A stretch of DNA of 64,000 bases from Promethearchaeota archaeon (GCA_019057865.1 JAHLWP010000006.1:1-64000); one strand, 5' to 3'; counted from the stretch's first letter, positions 2,155-42,747 are shown. Notes: generated from the letters alone by a model not told the origin. A program made the numbers and translations.

Positions 2155-3256
2155 ATGGCTTATAGCATTAAAGATGATGTTAATGAAATAATCAATCGTC
2201 TCGAAAAAGGAGATATCTCATTTAAAGAAAAAACAATCTTAGTTACTGGAGGGGCGGGATTTTTGGGCTCATGGGTGTGTGATGTTCTTGTTAAACAGGA
2301 TGCATATTGCATCTGTTTAGACAATTTATCATCAGGACAACCTGAAAACATATTGCACCTTATGGAAAAAGACAAATTTCGTTTTATTAACCACGATATT
2401 TCTTATCCAATATATTTTGGAATGAGTTATCATCCATTGGGCATTTGCATAGGGGATATTAAAAAAATAGATATCGTTATGCATATGGCAAGTCGAGCAT
2501 CTCCATTTGAATTTACAAAAGAACCAATATCAATATTAAGAAGCAATACTCTGGGAACTTTGAATACTTTAGGAATTGCGAAATTCCATAATGCCATGTT
2601 TTTTTATACAAGTACCTCTGAAGTCTATGGAAATCCACCAAAAGAAGCTGTTCCTACACCAGAAAGTTACTTTGGGCACGTAAATCTTGCTTAAGGTTTC
2701 CTACAAGAACGTATACCCAGTAGGTCCCAGAAGTTGCTATGATGAGTCTAAAAGAGCTGGAGAAGCATTTATTAAAGCTTATGAACTTCAACATCAAATG
2801 AGAACAAAAATCGTGAGAATTTTTAATACAGCAGGACCTAGAATACGATATGGACCTGAATTTGGAAGAGTTGTTCCCAACTTCATACACCAAGCCATAC
2901 ATGATGAAGATATTATTGTTTTTGGAGATGGGTCACAAACTAGATCTTTTATCTATGTAGTCGATGAGATTGAAGGGATACTTAAAATGGTACATAAAGA
3001 TGAAGCCATTGGAAATGTTATAAATTTAGGTAATAATAAGGAATATACAATTCTAGAATTAGCTAATATCATAAAAGATTTAACGAATTCTAACTCAAAA
3101 ATTATATTTAATCCATTACCTATTGATGATCCAGTCCGAAGGTGTCCTGATATACAAAAAGCAAAGGAAATTCTCAATTGGGAACCAACAACATCTTTAA
3201 GGGACGGTTTGAAAAAAACTATTGCTTGGTTTAAAGATAATGAGCGTAAAAGTTAA
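2155..3256 (+). CDS. UDP-glucuronate decarboxylase-like NAD-dependent epimerase/dehydratase (extended SDR), spliced: exons 2155-2683 + 2715-3256, 356 aa
   Basis: LVTGGAGFLGS, HMASRASP and STSEVYG lie in the first ORF; GPRSCYDESKR, RIFNTAGPR and GDGSQTRSF lie in the second. Removing 31 nt gives YFGHVNPVGPRSCYDESKR. Confidence 0.9.
2684..2714 (+). other. Putative BHB-type mRNA intron (31 nt)
   Basis: Central helix ACGT(2678-81)/ACGT(2709-12), bulges AAA and ATA, inner stem TCTTG/CAAGA, outer TGGG/CCCA with one unpaired C. Canonical cut positions restore the frame. Confidence 0.85.
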
Positions 3257-3764
3257 GAGTAATGAAAAAACAAATCTAAAGAACAGTAATAAACAGTTTG
3301 AGATTATCTTAAAAATCTGTTTAATTATCGGTATTATTATAATTTCAGGTTTTATATTCTATTACATTTCTACTCCTGAGCCCGGATATGTTACTTTTGG
3401 AATTTTAAATGAGAATCAAAAGGCTGAAGATTATCCTACCGAAGCGGCTGTTAATGAGAGTGTTTTTTTTTATGTCACTGTTGAAAATCATATGAAACGA
3501 GATTTTTCATTTCACTTAGAGATTTTTAAAGGTGATAATGAAACGATTTTAAATTCAACAGGATTATTTGGCGCTAAATCATATTTCAATACAACTACAG
3601 TACATTTAAACCATAAGGATTTTTGGATGTCTAATATTTTAAATGTTTCATTTTTACAACCTGGTGCAAATCAAAGAATTATAGTAATATTATGGGAAAT
3701 TCCTTATAGTGGAATAAGAAGATACGTTTCTTCGCTATACTTATGGTTAGAAATTTTGCCATGA
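3240..3764 (+). CDS. DUF1616-like membrane-anchored protein
   Basis: N-terminal TM helix, then FGILNENQKAEDYP...FYVTVENH...LYLWLEI. ATG 3240 preferred over TTG 3222. Confidence 0.7.
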   Translation: MSVKVKSNEKTNLKNSNKQFEIILKICLIIGIIIISGFIFYYISTPEPGYVTFGILNENQKAEDYPTEAAVNESVFFYVTVENHMKRDFSFHLEIFKGDNETILNSTGLFGAKSYFNTTTVHLNHKDFWMSNILNVSFLQPGANQRIIVILWEIPYSGIRRYVSSLYLWLEILP

Positions 3765-4871: not shown

Positions 4872-6238
4872 CCACCTATTATTTGAACATCCTTTATTCT
4901 AACAAAGGGTGCTTGGAAAGATCCATAGATTTTAAATTCTTTAGATACAGCATTTATATTTTTGAAGAGATCTAAAAGATTAATACCAAACATAGTTTTA
5001 TTTAATGGTTCCTTAATTTCTCCATTTTTAATTAAATTTCCATGCAAAATAAGCCCTGAAAAGTCTCCGGTTGAAATATTAGGAGAATCTCCAGTATAAT
5101 CTAAAAGAATTCCCTCTTTAATATCATTTATTATTTCATCTTTAGAGAGATTTCCTGGTTTTAAAATGAAATTAGAAATGCCAATAGAAGGTATAGAACT
5201 ATAAGAATTTCGAGATGCGTTGCCGGTACTTTCAATATTATCTTTTCCAGCAGTATAACTGTTATGTAATAATCCTGTTTTAAGAAATTTACCTCTTTCA
5301 AATATCTTTTTATTTTTGCAAGGAACTCCTTCACCATCAAATGATGAAGAACCAGGAGCACCATCAATTAAGGCATTATCTTCAATATCTAAATAGTTTG
5401 ACCCTATTATTTCTTCTCTCTTCCCGATCAAAAAGCTTCTTTTATACTGGAAAGTTTCTGCATTAATAGCAGATGCTATTGGATTTAAAATTAAATTAAT
5501 TGTACCAAAAGGTGTTAAAAGCAAAGTTATTTTCATACTTTTTATTCTTATCCTATTTAAATTTCTTTTAGCTTTTTCTAAAGCATTTGATGCAATTTCT
5601 TTTGCATTAATCTCGCTTAAAGTTCTCATAGATTGCCAATCATAGCCAAAAGAAGTTTCATTACTAACTTTATCTTTAACAATTATATTTGAAGATATTG
5701 AGCAACTGGTCTCTTTTCCAGTTATAAATAAACCATTTGAGTTAAAAATATTGGTTTTAGTATAATTGGATAGAAAATTACCAGATTGAGAAATCGCTAA
5801 TTCATCTTTACTGCATACTTGAATTAAATCTTCAACATATTTTAGAGATTCGTCAATTTCTAAATTTTTTAAATTATTATCGTATAAATTCTTCACATCT
5901 GGGTATTTATTATATTGATTAGGTAAGTTCTTAAAATCAAGGTCTATAGTGCCAGCATTCATCATCTTAAGAGCAATACTTATCATCTTTTCAATTGATT
6001 TTTTTTTTACTCTATTAGTAAAAGCAAACCCTAGGGAACCTTTTTTATTAATTACTCTAATAGCAGTCCCATAATCATCTCCTACCTCACTATTTTTAAC
6101 AGAATTTTCTTCAATTTCAATATTAATATAATTATTTTTCCCAAAGAATATTTCAGCACATTTCAGATCAGAGTTACTTCGCTCGGCTAATTTTAATCCA
6201 TAATTTGCCAAGCTATAAACATCAGAATTATGGTCCAT
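4868..6238 (-). CDS. pmbA: TldD/PmbA family protein (PmbA/TldE-type)
   Basis: FDGEG, STGNASR, NISTGDFSG; no HExxH; paired with tldD. Confidence 0.85.
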   Translation of the reverse strand: MDHNSDVYSLANYGLKLAERSNSDLKCAEIFFGKNNYINIEIEENSVKNSEVGDDYGTAIRVINKKGSLGFAFTNRVKKKSIEKMISIALKMMNAGTIDLDFKNLPNQYNKYPDVKNLYDNNLKNLEIDESLKYVEDLIQVCSKDELAISQSGNFLSNYTKTNIFNSNGLFITGKETSCSISSNIIVKDKVSNETSFGYDWQSMRTLSEINAKEIASNALEKAKRNLNRIRIKSMKITLLLTPFGTINLILNPIASAINAETFQYKRSFLIGKREEIIGSNYLDIEDNALIDGAPGSSSFDGEGVPCKNKKIFERGKFLKTGLLHNSYTAGKDNIESTGNASRNSYSSIPSIGISNFILKPGNLSKDEIINDIKEGILLDYTGDSPNISTGDFSGLILHGNLIKNGEIKEPLNKTMFGINLLDLFKNINAVSKEFKIYGSFQAPFVRIKDVQIIGG

Positions 6239-38862: not shown

Positions 38863-40389
38863 CTAATTCTGATTTAAATTGCTAAAATTTTTATAGAAAT
38901 CATTACCCTCTAAATAATTATACAATTCATATGAAAGTTTATAGATTTTTTCATAAATTTCATGATTTTCATTATTAGGTATCCACTTCTTATCAACCTT
39001 ACATAAATTTTCTGCTGCTTTAGAGATATCAGGATATAATCCTGCTCCTGAAGCTGCTAATATAGCTGCACCCAATGATGTGGATTCTTCAATTATATTT
39101 CTTACACACGTAATACCTAAAACATCAGCATATATCTGATTCCAAAAATCTGAACGAGAACCGCCTCCAGTTAACATTAATTCTTTAGGGACAATTCCTA
39201 TTTCTTTGAAAACTTCGACATTTTTTCTTACTTCAAACGCCACGCCTTCAAGAACAGCTCGATAAAGATCTTTTCGTTCATGACCTAAAGACAGCCCAAA
39301 GAGTATTCCCTTTGCGAAAGGATTCCAATGGGGAGCTCCTGCCCCTACTAAGTGGGGAATCAATATTAATCCATTAGCGCCCATTGGAGACTGTTTTGCT
39401 TCAGATATCATATTTTCATATGGATCTTGACCTATCTCTTCTGCTACTAAGCATTCAGCTTTGCCCACTTGATCTCTGAACCATCTTAGTGTGGCTCCGG
39501 ATGTGAAAATGCTAGCTTCTTGCACCCAAGATCCTGGTACTGCATGACAGCTACATATTACTCTCTTCTCTGGATCGAATTTTGGTTTGTCTAAATAAGC
39601 TAAAATAAAACTTCCTGTTCCTGTTGTACATTTAATATCACCAAGAGAAACTACTCCTACTCCTAAAGCTGCAGATTGTTGATCTCCTGCACCTGTAACC
39701 ACTAAAGTTTTCTTATCGAATAATGTCTCATCTGTTACAATTTCTCCAATATCTATTCCACTTTCTATTGCTTCTGGCATTTTATCTAAATCTATTTCAA
39801 GCTCGGAAGCGATGTCTTCTGAATATCGAAGGTTATTGATATCAAATAACATTGTTCTAGAAGCATTTGAAAAATCGGTATAAAACTTACCTGTTAATTT
39901 GTGTATTATGAAATCTGATACCAATAAGAATTTATGAGTTTTTTGATAAATATCTGGTTTCTCATCCTTGAACCATAATATTTTAGTAGCAGAAAAATAT
40001 GGATCTATTGTCAATCCTGTAATCCCATAAATTTTATCTAATCCTAACTTAGATTTAATTGTTTCCACTTGATTTATAGTGCGTCGATCTTGCCAAACTA
40101 ATGCATTATGAAGAGGATTTCCCTCTTTATCAACAGGTACTATAGTTTCTCGTTGATTGGTAACAGATAGGCTTACAATATCTGTTTTATCAATCCCACT
40201 CTTTTTTATGGCATTATCAATAGTTTTTTTGATTGAATCCCACCACACTTTAGCGTCCTGTTCAACATAAGAAGGAGAAGGATAAAAGCTATTCCATTCT
40301 TGATAATCACTAGCAATTATTGTACCAGCTAAATCAAAAATATAGGTTCTACACCCTGTTGTCCCTAAATCCAATGCAGCGACAAACAT
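38863..40389 (-). CDS. FGGY carbohydrate kinase (xylulokinase/glycerol kinase-like)
   Basis: DLGTTG, VEQD, NQRET, WQDRR, GDQQ, TGTG, GGGSRS. Confidence 0.92.
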   Translation of the reverse strand: MFVAALDLGTTGCRTYIFDLAGTIIASDYQEWNSFYPSPSYVEQDAKVWWDSIKKTIDNAIKKSGIDKTDIVSLSVTNQRETIVPVDKEGNPLHNALVWQDRRTINQVETIKSKLGLDKIYGITGLTIDPYFSATKILWFKDEKPDIYQKTHKFLLVSDFIIHKLTGKFYTDFSNASRTMLFDINNLRYSEDIASELEIDLDKMPEAIESGIDIGEIVTDETLFDKKTLVVTGAGDQQSAALGVGVVSLGDIKCTTGTGSFILAYLDKPKFDPEKRVICSCHAVPGSWVQEASIFTSGATLRWFRDQVGKAECLVAEEIGQDPYENMISEAKQSPMGANGLILIPHLVGAGAPHWNPFAKGILFGLSLGHERKDLYRAVLEGVAFEVRKNVEVFKEIGIVPKELMLTGGGSRSDFWNQIYADVLGITCVRNIIEESTSLGAAILAASGAGLYPDISKAAENLCKVDKKWIPNNENHEIYEKIYKLSYELYNYLEGNDFYKNFSNLNQN

Positions 40390-40391
40390 TT
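40253..40391 (-). repeat. Direct repeat copy 1 (5' end of the FGGY kinase gene), 139 bp
   Basis: Matches 41811-41949 with 4 mismatches. Confidence 0.95.
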
Positions 40392-40489
40392 TTATAACTC
40401 TTATGTCTTAAATTTCTAAAAATATATTTAATTATAAATAGAGTATTAATAAAAAAGTTATCCTTCAATAGATTGATAATTCTGGTTTA

Positions 40490-40940
40490 AAAATTAAAAA
40501 AAGAATTCACTTCATTTTTTATAAAATCTTTAATTCTATTCGGTCTGTTCATTTTCGGGCAGATCCAATATGGAAATTCAAAAAAGATAATTCCATTATG
40601 GTAGAGAAGATAGATTTTAAGAAGATCATTAATTATACCATTTAAAAACGAATCTAGTTCATTAATATTTTTATGAAAATAATTCGGAAAAATATAATGC
40701 TGAATTCCATTATATTCGAATGTTATCCATATGAAATTTTCGCTATGATAATTAAAGGGGGTATTAATTTCACGCTCAAGAAGAAAAATTTTATTATTTT
40801 TAATGGTAATTTTAATATAACCAATAGGGAACTGAATTTTTATTAGTTTTGAATCAATTTTCGTATAATCATCTTTAATTTTATCAACAATCTTCTGAAT
40901 TTGGAAAGCATCGAAAAGTTAAAATATGATGGATATCATT
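40490..40940 (-). pseudogene. Frameshifted relic of a PD-(D/E)xK nuclease homologous to the C-terminus of 51-1928
   Basis: WITFEYNGIQHYIFPNYF...DLLKIYL...IIFFEFPYWI (FEYNGIQHY at 40720-40694); FDAF motif upstream in another frame. Boundaries are approximate. Confidence 0.8.
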
Positions 40941-41144
40941 ACTCTGATATATATTATAATACTAATCAAGTCGGGTGTTCCTCAAGTAAGAAATCAGTAT
41001 TATACACACATTCAGTGCAGTTATTATGGAGCTCACATACCTTTTGTTTTACGCTTTCCGCTAATTTGCTCCGAAAAATCTTACAGTGTTCCTTTAGAGT
41101 AACATTTTATATATATTTTTTAATCAGAAAAAACATGATTACAT

Positions 41145-41501
41145 ATGATAGGTTTTGTTATATCTCTTATTCTCGCCATATCTTCCTTGTTGTTGGGAAT
41201 ACCTTTGATATTCAGAAAAGTTAAACCTAATCATTTTTATGGTTTTCGTGTGTCAAAATTCATTTTTAAAAGTGATGATATATGGTATGAAGTAAATGCT
41301 AAAGGAGGGATGCATTTAATCATTATTGGAGGTGTTTTAATAGTTATAGCTTCATTAGCATTAGTATATATTAATGATAATATCTTGCAAGGCATTTTTT
41401 TATTCATCACTTTACTTATCGAGGCATTGGGACTTATTTTATCTTTAATCATAACATATAATCTAGCACATAGACTAGCAAAGGAAAAAGGATTAAAATA
41501 A
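41145..41501 (+). CDS. SdpI/YhfL-family membrane protein
   Basis: KVKPNHFYGFR...SDDIWYEVN..GG; 3 TM segments. Confidence 0.8.
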   Translation: MIGFVISLILAISSLLLGIPLIFRKVKPNHFYGFRVSKFIFKSDDIWYEVNAKGGMHLIIIGGVLIVIASLALVYINDNILQGIFLFITLLIEALGLILSLIITYNLAHRLAKEKGLK

Positions 41502-41770
41502 ATATTTTCACTGCAATTTAAAAGCAGAAAAAGGATTCTTCTATAAGAAAAAGAGAAGCAACAACAGATTTTATTTAACTGACTTTGGGTGTAGGAAATT
41601 CTTTCAGATTTCTTTTCAAATTGAAAAAAAAATTGATCTTTCCATAGGATTATCAACTTCCTTTAACACATTTTTCAATTTATAGTAGTATAAGGTTTTA
41701 TTCACAAATTTATTGGACGAAGTACATCTCTTATTTATGCCTTTTCATGTAGACAATTTACTCCAAATAT

Positions 41771-41947
41771 TTAAATAAGTTTGGAGATATTATGAATTTG
41801 GGAAACTGTTGCATCTTGTTCAACATAGGAAGGAGAAGGATAAAAGCTATTCCATTCTTGATAATCACTAGCGATTATTGTACCAGCTAAATCAAAAATA
41901 TAGGTTCTACACCCTGTTGTCCCTAAATCCAATGCAGCGACAAACAT
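41771..41947 (-). pseudogene. Truncated 5' copy of the FGGY kinase (46 codons, then unrelated sequence); direct repeat copy 2 at 41811-41949
   Basis: MFVAALDLGTTG...SYVEQDA then TVSQIHNISKLI*. Confidence 0.9.
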
Positions 41948-42045
41948 TTACTTCAAATCTCTTTAATTAAACTTTTTTATAAAATTAATTTAACAATATT
42001 CTTATAAGGATACTTATTAATGCGTTCTTTTAATAAGTTTATGAT

Positions 42046-42747
42046 TTAACTACTTTTATATCCACAACGAGGACAGACTAACCTACCAAAGCCTACACTA
42101 TAATCCTTAAGTTCCTTCATTAATTCATTACAAATAGGACATAATTTATTTGACAATTTTGGTTTATAAGATGGGAACCAAGCCCCTTCAATATTAGGCA
42201 TATTCTTTAACATCTCTACATACTTTAATTTATCAATATAATTCTTATCAACTTGAAAAAGTTGTTGTTCCTCTGCGATTGATTTACCCATTGGTGCTAA
42301 TATCACTAAAAATTTAATATTTGAAGGATTATTTAAAAGAGAAAGAGTTTTTAATATTGCTCCTTCTTTGTGTTCAGCGAATAATTTAGCAAGTTCGGGG
42401 GGAGCTAAAGCAACTAAAATACCTTGAGAATCCTCTCTTTCAGTTTTTTTCACTCTTTGAAATAAAAATTGAAACATACGATTTTGATTATCAAAAGCCC
42501 AAATAAAATTCCAGTTAAAAATATCATAATCTTCATTATTAGGCCCAACTATTCTTCTTAGGCATTTAATCCATGAATAATGATTGTAATTATATACTTT
42601 TGAAAGGATATCGTCAAAAAATTCCTGCTGAATAACTGGAAATGTTTTAAGTATATTTTTCAGGGAAAATAATTTAACTTTACTTAATAAATTTGAATTG
42701 AGTGTATCCCAAGGTGTTAAGGTAAAAACTGTGAAATAACTGCTCAT
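42046..42747 (-). CDS. Hypothetical protein with C-terminal Zn ribbon
   Basis: CPIC...CPRCGY at the C-terminus. Confidence 0.6.
   Translation of the reverse strand: MSSYFTVFTLTPWDTLNSNLLSKVKLFSLKNILKTFPVIQQEFFDDILSKVYNYNHYSWIKCLRRIVGPNNEDYDIFNWNFIWAFDNQNRMFQFLFQRVKKTEREDSQGILVALAPPELAKLFAEHKEGAILKTLSLLNNPSNIKFLVILAPMGKSIAEEQQLFQVDKNYIDKLKYVEMLKNMPNIEGAWFPSYKPKLSNKLCPICNELMKELKDYSVGFGRLVCPRCGYKSS

Follow-up and report, generated by a model that had tools for sequence, protein, structure and literature searches.

The stretch of DNA studied here, called the window in this paper, comprises 64,000 nucleotides (nt) from a Promethearchaeota archaeon (GCA_019057865.1 JAHLWP010000006.1:1-64000). It represents the first 64 kb of the 154-kb contig C75 of genome G000, a metagenome-assembled draft of 4.26 Mb in 87 contigs with 29% G+C and an estimated contamination of 5%. 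At the locus in question an intact FGGY kinase gene is separated from its conserved upstream neighbour orf233 by an island of foreign sequence. This island is bracketed by two copies of the kinase 5' end (copy A, which is the start of the intact gene, and copy B, a truncated scar next to orf233) and contains the last codons of a large nuclease gene directly upstream of the kinase. Full-length relatives of this nuclease gene lie beside the same kinase in other genomes, and the kinases found there carry a short insert that resembles an intron of the transfer RNA (tRNA) type. Genomes are cited by handle (G000 etc.), g1 denotes the genus of the window and g28 a second genus of the same family. The coordinates of all features are collected in Table 1.

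The kinase possesses both domains of FGGY carbohydrate kinases (Pfam; FGGY_N 7.7e-71, FGGY_C 4.4e-36), and the closest NCBIfam model is XylB, which is matched with 375 bits, just below the cutoff of 380. Kinase orthologs were searched in 61 and then in 42 genomes, and an ortholog was found in every one of them. The gene order in nearly all g1 loci is herA, orf236, kinase, orf233 and orf388, and in most of the about 35 g1 loci examined (7 exceptions) the gap between orf233 and the kinase ATG amounts to about 100-117 bp; the same orf233-kinase arrangement is found in 25 of 28 g28 loci. In total the empty site is present in about 50 genomes of the two genera, including the nearest relatives G012 (95% identity at the amino acid (aa) level), G030 and G033. 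Copy B, the spacer upstream of it and the end of orf233 correspond position by position to the native arrangement in these three genomes. Therefore copy B represents the resident 5' end of the kinase, still in place, as had been supposed in the preliminary description of this DNA together with an insertion into a conserved site. The spacer preceding copy A bears no relation to the one found natively between orf233 and the kinase in the three relatives, and judged by these alignments all sequence from 41804 down to the ATG at 40389 is to be regarded as insertion.

The two copies extend over 145 nt with 96% identity and an offset of 1558, as found by a repeat search and confirmed by alignment; the preliminary description had given the same offset but a length of 139 bp. 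Each copy comprises 2 nt before the ATG and coding nt 1-143 (coding nucleotides are numbered from the kinase ATG; since the kinase is encoded on the minus strand, the copy at 41805-41949 is the upstream one), and copy B is readable as an open reading frame (ORF) of 58 codons at 41771-41947. The homology stops at nt 143, directly past VEQDA, where the break had been placed before. Within the first 46 codons the copies differ at five positions, nt 75 (Ile), 120 (Ser), 132 (Gln), 135 (Asp) and 138 (Ala), all of which are synonymous third positions, and a sixth difference (K47T) follows at nt 140. The earlier description of the mismatches as synonymous thus holds for these 46 codons, its count of four does not. 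The three differences at nt 132, 135 and 138 span 7 nt and lie within 12 nt of the break. The 4.26-Mb genome contains no further copy of the repeat, and no part of the island occurs twice in it.

Comparison with the empty-site relatives reveals a reciprocal pattern. At nt 132, 135 and 138 copy A has the bases of G012 and G030 (G033 deviates in this region only at nt 133) and copy B is the deviant one, its end triplet CAA GAT GCA being present in the functional allele of G013. At nt 75, on the other hand, copy B agrees with G012, G030 and G033 and copy A is odd, and at nt 120, a site polymorphic among the relatives, copy B agrees with G012 and G033 and copy A with G030. Because the differences within the 46 codons are synonymous only, and because the end triplet of copy B is found in a working gene, the alignment points to an origin of the two copies from two different working alleles and not to a decayed local duplicate. 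The pattern would fit one crossover between nt 120 and 132, or else the transfer of a pre-existing scar, but with five sites this is a hint at most. The intact kinase as a whole has an ordinary 5' part: its exon-1 region is 97.5% identical to that of G012 and intron-free.

The nuclease remnant had been described as frameshifted. This is not the case, as its 142 codons (40490-40915) form a single open frame, which is preceded immediately by a stop and lacks a usable start. Over the last 141 residues (906-1046) of the 1047-aa protein of G068:C8 it shows 69% aa identity, and the corresponding C-termini in G126 and G112 are 87% and 86% identical on the aa level and 92.3% on the nt level. Sequence upstream of 40915 gave no match to the remaining part of the full-length nucleases. 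On the basis of these alignments the relic is best described as the 5'-truncated remnant of a free-standing nuclease gene of 1047-1790 aa, and we have little doubt that it derives from a cassette targeting the kinase. Its ratio of nonsynonymous to synonymous substitution rates (dN/dS) is 0.49-0.59 as compared with 0.27 for the pair G126-G112, a value based on just 32 differences, which suggests relaxed constraint. The nuclease was likewise not inactivated by a frameshift, as had been thought; instead it lost about its first 900 codons at the point where it adjoins an SdpI block, which was acquired separately. The SdpI gene, taken before to be co-oriented with the kinase, lies on the plus strand (41145-41501) and thus opposite to it.

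Intact homologs of the relic are indeed linked to the kinase, so that the refuting condition named in the preliminary description, a consistent lack of such linkage, did not come true. In G068:C8 the nuclease gene is co-oriented with the kinase gene and ends 97 nt before its ATG, and the same geometry is found in G126:C191, in G112 and on the metagenome contigs L121 and L122. The nuclease is whole in G068, G126, L121 and L122 and cut down at its 5' end in G112. A search across 154 genomes of the order found this close form of the nuclease in five of them. The succession of nuclease, short spacer, exon 1 and micro-intron at these loci is the one seen at the intron loci of the window, as the preliminary description had suggested, and the nuclease at 51-1928, which belongs to one of these intron loci, shares the C-terminal domain with the relic. 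In G068 and G129 the nuclease gene itself has a conserved gene of 162-171 codons in front of it.

In all five nuclease-linked kinase genes an insert follows the sequence ACCAA(T/C)CAA (T77 N78 Q79). It has a length of 33 nt in G068 and of 30 nt in G126, G112, L121 and L122, and it holds an in-frame stop; its deletion restores the TNQRET motif and a fully open frame in every case. TNQRET is conserved across the kinases of g1 and g28, and the insert is confined to the nuclease-linked alleles: among the remaining orthologs (about 55 in g1, about 38 in g28) no kinase with an insert or internal stop was found. G000 and the metagenome contig L123 (see below) have the nuclease remnant and no insert; in the G000 kinase the site after Q79 (nt 237) corresponds to the junction between 40153 and 40152. 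RNAfold predicts for the insert an inner hairpin and a 3-bp helix with unpaired splice sites, which is a relaxed and not a canonical bulge-helix-bulge. The inner helix reads CGG/CCG in G068 and CAG/CUG in G126, a two-sided change which keeps the pairing.

The cassette does not share the history of the genomes in which it is found. In G068 exon 1 of the kinase is only 68.8% identical on the nt level to the g1 orthologs, as compared with 80% for the remainder of the gene. Because exon 1 is so much more diverged than the rest, it would have travelled with the nuclease. The remnant in G000 has its high nt identity to the nucleases of G126 and G112, which belong to another genus and whose kinases are 73-78% identical, and the spacer following it is of the G068 type. 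Therefore the cassette is horizontally mobile and is itself a mosaic.

The protein encoded by the full-length genes consists of two different parts. In an alignment of fifteen C-terminal domains the core E..G.QH..PN...D..K is invariant or nearly so, and it is kept in the relic. Ten of these fifteen domains match phage families, namely phrog_559 (2e-15), phrog_9084, annotated as homing endonuclease (1e-10), and phrog_7140, annotated as intron encoded nuclease (2e-8). These matches come from relatives with a typical C-terminal domain, whereas the kinase-linked form alone finds just phrog_7140 at 0.007; it is connected to a phrog-matching relative by 49% identity over 72 aa (E 9e-21). Searches of the relic and the full-length nucleases against Pfam and NCBIfam gave no significant family. 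For the C-terminal domain there are weak Pfam hints of the PD-(D/E)XK clan (DUF2726, 0.012; PDDEXK_9, 0.14), and leads from the Atlas are the viral clusters DUF723, DUF4379 and DUF559. A profile made from the domain alignment obtained one chance match among PDB sequences (E 0.3). The AlphaFold2 model of the domain (predicted local distance difference test (pLDDT) score 75) had no Foldseek match at E<=0.001 and reached a Z of at most 3.9 in VIA; rows with ribosome-inactivating proteins are weak and were taken as chance.

The N-terminal part is built of five repeats of 140 residues, and of more in G126. The model of a single repeat reaches a pLDDT of 89.5, and in its first 33 rows VIA lists cyclin-box proteins exclusively, headed by the core of the Pyrococcus woesei TFB (1ais_B; Z 9.3, root-mean-square deviation 2.6, 97 aligned residues). 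Foldseek gave nothing significant for this model, and the fold is seen by VIA only. The repeats are thus predicted to adopt a TFIIB/cyclin-box fold, with the caution which a helical model with a Z below 13 calls for. If the models are right, the repeats could form a modular array for reading DNA, which would be new for homing nucleases.

Table 1. Features of the kinase locus in the window (first eleven rows) and positions of intact nuclease genes at other loci
Feature	Position	Strand	Basis or remark
FGGY (xylulokinase-like) kinase, intact, 508 codons, intron-free	38863..40389	-	Pfam, NCBIfam
Repeat copy A, start of the intact kinase (2 nt upstream and coding nt 1-143)	40247..40391	-	repeat search, alignment
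Cassette-type spacer from nuclease stop to kinase ATG, replaces the native promoter region	40390..40486	-	aligns with G068 spacer
Nuclease remnant, last 142 codons and stop	40487..40915	-	open frame 40490-40915
SdpI block, 618 bp	40916..41533	+	SdpI gene with 229 nt upstream and 32 nt downstream
SdpI/YfhL-family gene	41145-41501	+	Pfam PF13630
Two short patches	41529..41685	.	similarity to G068:C25 and G068:C155
E1 element, 127 nt	41679..41805	-	copies in G064, G019, G022
Repeat copy B (scar), resident kinase 5' end broken off after VEQDA	41805..41949	-	alignment
Native spacer	41950-42045	-	matches G012, G030, G033
orf233, conserved upstream neighbour of the kinase	42046-42747	-	synteny in g1 and g28
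Intact nuclease gene, G068 (1047 aa)	L064 995-4135
Intact nuclease gene, G129 (1049 aa)	L110 7283-10432
Intact nuclease gene, G126 (1790-aa frame)	L108 3487-8856

Studying the island between the two copies in full reveals a patchwork of at least five unrelated pieces. The SdpI gene is well supported (8.2e-11; 42.3 bits at a cutoff of 28.2), and the block around it is 98.9% identical to G068:C155:54981-55598 (L087 6982-7599), other genes of C155 being about 70% identical to G000. The edges of the block are sharp with different flanks on both sides in the two genomes, and its left edge is exactly the point at which the nuclease gene is cut off. Possibly the block is a small mobile cassette. The first of the two short patches (41529-41608) is 89% identical to G068:C25:2804-2883; the second (41608-41685) is 85% identical to the flank on the opposite side of the SdpI block in G068:C155. 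A 78-nt element thereby switches sides of the block between G000 and G068, as though the unit had been circularly permuted. The frame at 40969-41106, considered as an N-terminal part of the relic, was rejected: it is part of the SdpI block and 96% identical in the nuclease-free G068:C155.

The E1 element begins at the exact base at which the kinase homology of copy B stops, and it contains a hairpin (CTCCAAA...TTTGGAG). Copies with 86-89% identity are present in G064:C30, G019:C64 and G022:C83, all with the same first base, and E1 recurs at several loci in G064, G019, G022 and G077 with a constant start base. In G064:C30 (L089 5156-5281) it is located between a 1080-aa ORF and an array of clustered regularly interspaced short palindromic repeats (CRISPR; 5473-6051, 29-nt repeat, 61-nt period). 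A role of E1 as CRISPR leader was considered and rejected, as an array follows in G064 only and G019 and G022 have none; G000 holds no CRISPR array with the 29-nt repeat of the G064 type. The hairpin and the fixed start might mark an end of the IS200/IS605 type; no transposase was found, and conserved sequence precedes E1 in G064, G019 and G022:C100.

Truncated kinase 5' copies are not restricted to G000. In total six of them were identified, which end at nt 62, 86 and 109 (G068), 143 (G000), 162 (G009) and 235 (G129). None of the six ends lies beyond the intron site (nt 237), and the one in G129 is within 2 nt of it; this is suggestive, since a break there with ends lost to a variable extent could give such a distribution. 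In G129 (C4, L110) orf233 is followed by a kinase copy up to nt 235 (ending GCTAATC), a 162-codon ORF and the intact 1049-aa nuclease. The intact kinase of this genome, which is intron-free, lies on C32 (L120), and no link between the two contigs could be established. Upstream of this kinase lies an ORF of 1456 aa that matches AAA_22 weakly, and the kinase motif reads IANQRET (Ala77), a variant also found in G130 and G110.

The G009 locus (G009:C95, L034 4862-5038 and 5171-8200) consists of orf233, a kinase 5' copy up to nt 162 that has lost its start codon and contains one stop, a 3.6-kb insert, a 3' remnant of orf233 and the intact kinase. The insert encodes a 1009-aa PAS/histidine-kinase protein on the opposite strand; the two kinase copies have different spacer types, and there is no nuclease. 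G068 harbours three extra scars besides its live cassette (L085 (C39) 126-212 and 5351-5413; L086 (C152) 1-72 and 2643-3279). Two of the three are preceded by 3' fragments of orf233, and one scar contains the joint between the ends of contigs C39 and C152; the stacked scars give the impression of several invasions, one on top of the other. The inserts at the locus in G018 and G007 are accompanied by neither scar nor nuclease. In G112 (L109, C8, 7644-10037) and G018 (L031, C83, 6843-8411) the gap between orf233 and the kinase holds related genes, which encode a large repeat protein that is secreted or anchored in the membrane. Thus the spot between kinase and orf233 is also home to ordinary cargo genes. 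In three g1 drafts the kinase gene is split by a contig break (G030:C7/C25, G020:C185/C15, G010:C194/C332), which may reflect mixed alleles in the sampled populations.

An independent copy of the whole island is present on L123, the metagenome contig Ga0209978_10011366 of 4257 nt, which besides the island includes orf388 and orf233, copy B and part of the kinase (600 nt). The island segments differ from those of G000 by 0-1 positions each (99.8-100% identity). The orf233 of this contig (1316-1999), however, differs from that of the window (42046-42747) at 37 positions. With only 94.7% identity in this gene L123 represents another strain, and it has the same joints. As far as the comparison of these two assemblies goes, L123 argues strongly against a chimera of strains, and an assembly artefact appears unlikely. 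In orf388 and in the island, which flank orf233, the identity between G000 and L123 is 98.8-100%, so that orf233 resembles a recombination patch. The C-terminal end of orf233 contains a zinc ribbon (CxxC...CxxC) with a faint match to the zinc-ribbon domain of Cas12f/TnpB (E 0.048).

Taken as a whole, we regard the island with moderate confidence as what is left, late in decay and rearrangement, of a selfish nuclease cassette directed against the FGGY kinase gene. In its live form this cassette would combine a long nuclease gene, free-standing and immediately upstream of the kinase, with a micro-intron of 30-33 nt at TNQ/RET, in the most conserved motif of the kinase. The nuclease would cut intron-less kinase alleles at or near TNQ/RET, and the break would be repaired from cassette-bearing DNA that is homologous on the kinase side only. 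With homology on one side only the other junction would be illegitimate, and the resident 5' end would be left upstream as a truncated scar. In G000 this scar has kept the native promoter and the adjacency to orf233, the working kinase being driven from the cassette spacer. Later a separately transferred SdpI block may have removed all but the last 142 nuclease codons (about 900 lost), and other short foreign pieces would have accumulated in the island. The intron-free state of the G000 kinase could be due to a crossover close to the ATG or to a later recombination with an intron-less allele, and it would be tolerable only since the genome holds no live nuclease of the kinase-linked type. An origin of the duplication by one-sided recombination of incoming DNA seems to us reasonably probable. 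That a nuclease cut started this event is close to an even question, which we would answer slightly in the negative.

If the different loci are put in one series, the stages would be the empty site, live nuclease with intron (G068, G126), dead nuclease with intron (G112), dead nuclease without intron but with a scar (G000), and stacked scars (G068). We put forward only tentatively the wider idea that the kinase locus records the whole life cycle of a new composite element, made of a nuclease that reads DNA by cyclin boxes and a tRNA-type micro-intron that shields the cut site.

Several observations weigh against the reading of the island as a decayed cassette. The G000 kinase, without intron and with an ordinary exon 1, is not the direct product of a repair that brings in exon 1 and the intron, and therefore at least one further recombination must be assumed. 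In G129 an intact nuclease coexists with an intron-free intact kinase. The bias of the scar ends is also expected if long direct repeats are lost faster than short ones. The predicted RNA fold of the insert departs from the canonical bulge-helix-bulge, and the model of the C-terminal nuclease domain, which is of moderate quality, matched no known fold convincingly. Finally, the nuclease-free inserts in G009, G018 and G007 may indicate that the spot is a general hot spot of recombination.

Such a hot spot, independent of the nuclease, would receive foreign kinase-homologous DNA by one homologous and one illegitimate join, with the nuclease remnant as passive cargo; in a variant, a circle of 1558 bp with a kinase fragment of 143 nt was integrated by a single reciprocal crossover. 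The reciprocal pattern of the five differences agrees with this, as one crossover between nt 120 and 132 suffices, and so do the composition of the island from at least five unrelated parts and the scars or inserts without nuclease at the same spot. However, the pattern comprises just five sites, one of which (nt 120) is polymorphic among the relatives. A hot spot also leaves unexplained why the remnant stems from a nuclease that accompanies this kinase in five further genomes or contigs from two genera, and why the intron is confined to nuclease-linked kinases. We consider the hot spot and its variant, judged together, unlikely.

In the preliminary description the resident allele was cut near VEQD and repaired with the synonymously recoded and thereby resistant 5' end of the cassette. 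Three synonymous differences so close to the break would be in line with this, but it is the truncated copy that deviates there, whereas the intact copy agrees with the alleles of G012 and G030 (G033 being off at nt 133) and would be as sensitive to cutting as any empty-site allele. The protection visible in G068, G126 and G112 is the intron at nt 237, and in G068 also the diverged exon 1. Both the intron site and the scar in G129 point to a cut at TNQ/RET, about 95 nt further downstream than VEQD. The recoded end is given up, and its scenario is very improbable. A tandem duplication that arose locally within the lineage and lost one copy to decay, or a chimera assembled from two strains, which the 96% identity of the direct repeats and the fragmented draft with its 5% contamination could suggest, is hardly credible, because the upstream spacers of the copies are unrelated (native and cassette type), the sequence between them is foreign, the five differences are synonymous with three in 7 nt matching a foreign working allele, the different strain on L123 has the same joints, and comparable scars occur in the independent assemblies G009, G068 and G129.

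The arrangement recalls the free-standing homing endonucleases SegF, SegG and MobE of T-even phages, which act by intronless homing (PMC2988022; Belle et al. 2002, as cited there). The cleavage site of such enzymes lies at a distance from the gene that encodes them, flanking markers are carried along, and a partnership with an intron lacking an ORF is possible (PMC2988022). As in these systems the nuclease gene here is intergenic and adjoins its target, is distributed sporadically, and is accompanied by clean empty sites and decayed copies; flanking sequence moves along with it (exon 1 in G068), and the nuclease is more alike between genomes than the host genes are. In contrast, the host is the chromosome of an Asgard archaeon and not a phage, cleavage is a prediction, and the protein of 1047-1790 aa carries TFIIB/cyclin-like repeats. 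To our knowledge no such repeat architecture has been described for homing endonucleases. Unlike in clean homing, the G000 copy is dead and a partial gene duplication was left behind.

Collaborative homing is known for F-CphI, which is encoded beside the ORF-less group I intron of psbA in the cyanophage S-PM2 (PMC2988022, PMC6083498). Here as well a free-standing nuclease gene lies by a gene with an ORF-less intron in a conserved motif, the intron being present only where the nuclease is. The differences are that the 30-33-nt insert is of the tRNA type and not a self-splicing group I intron, that the nuclease belongs to another family, and that G000 lost the intron or never had it. Bulge-helix-bulge introns in archaeal ribosomal RNA and tRNA genes carry LAGLIDADG homing endonucleases such as I-DmoI and I-PorI inside a long intron. 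With these the kinase locus shares the tie between an intron that is predicted to be spliced like a tRNA and a homing-type nuclease; it differs from them in the nuclease being encoded outside the gene and in the tiny size of the intron. For tRNA-type introns in protein-coding genes of archaea the literature knows essentially one gene, cbf5, whose messenger RNA intron in Crenarchaeota has no associated nuclease (PMC2738675).

Two further systems concern the duplication. The SegB homing endonuclease drives segmental amplification and duplications in phage T6 (PMC13096335). There too break repair duplicates a segment including a truncated copy of a neighbouring gene, but the T6 arrays are tandem and selected under defence pressure, whereas a single partial duplicate brackets foreign DNA at the kinase. 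Homology-facilitated illegitimate recombination was reportedly described for natural transformation by de Vries and Wackernagel in 2002. It resembles our case in having one homologous anchor and one illegitimate join, and in mosaic insertions with duplicated or deleted flanks (compare the joint of copy B and E1), but it requires no site-specific nuclease and predicts no linkage of nuclease, kinase and intron.

In practical terms little follows for G000, where the intact kinase would be run from a foreign promoter region and the island is genomic debris. Next to the two intron loci of the window, the kinase would be a third target gene of such a system. Across genomes the locus offers a series, provided by nature for a single target, in which untouched sites, live nuclease with intron, and decayed remnants and scars are all represented. 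Since the presence of the intron is tied strictly to a selfish nuclease gene, the homing mechanism is directly testable. The undescribed architecture of the nuclease, which combines TFIIB-like repeats with a phage-type nuclease domain, may recognise DNA in a modular way. The locus addresses the question of how tRNA-type introns in archaeal protein genes originate and by which route they spread. If the reading given here is true, homing driven by a nuclease would give a concrete explanation of how introns of the tRNA type get into protein-coding genes, and spread there, in the archaea related to eukaryotes.

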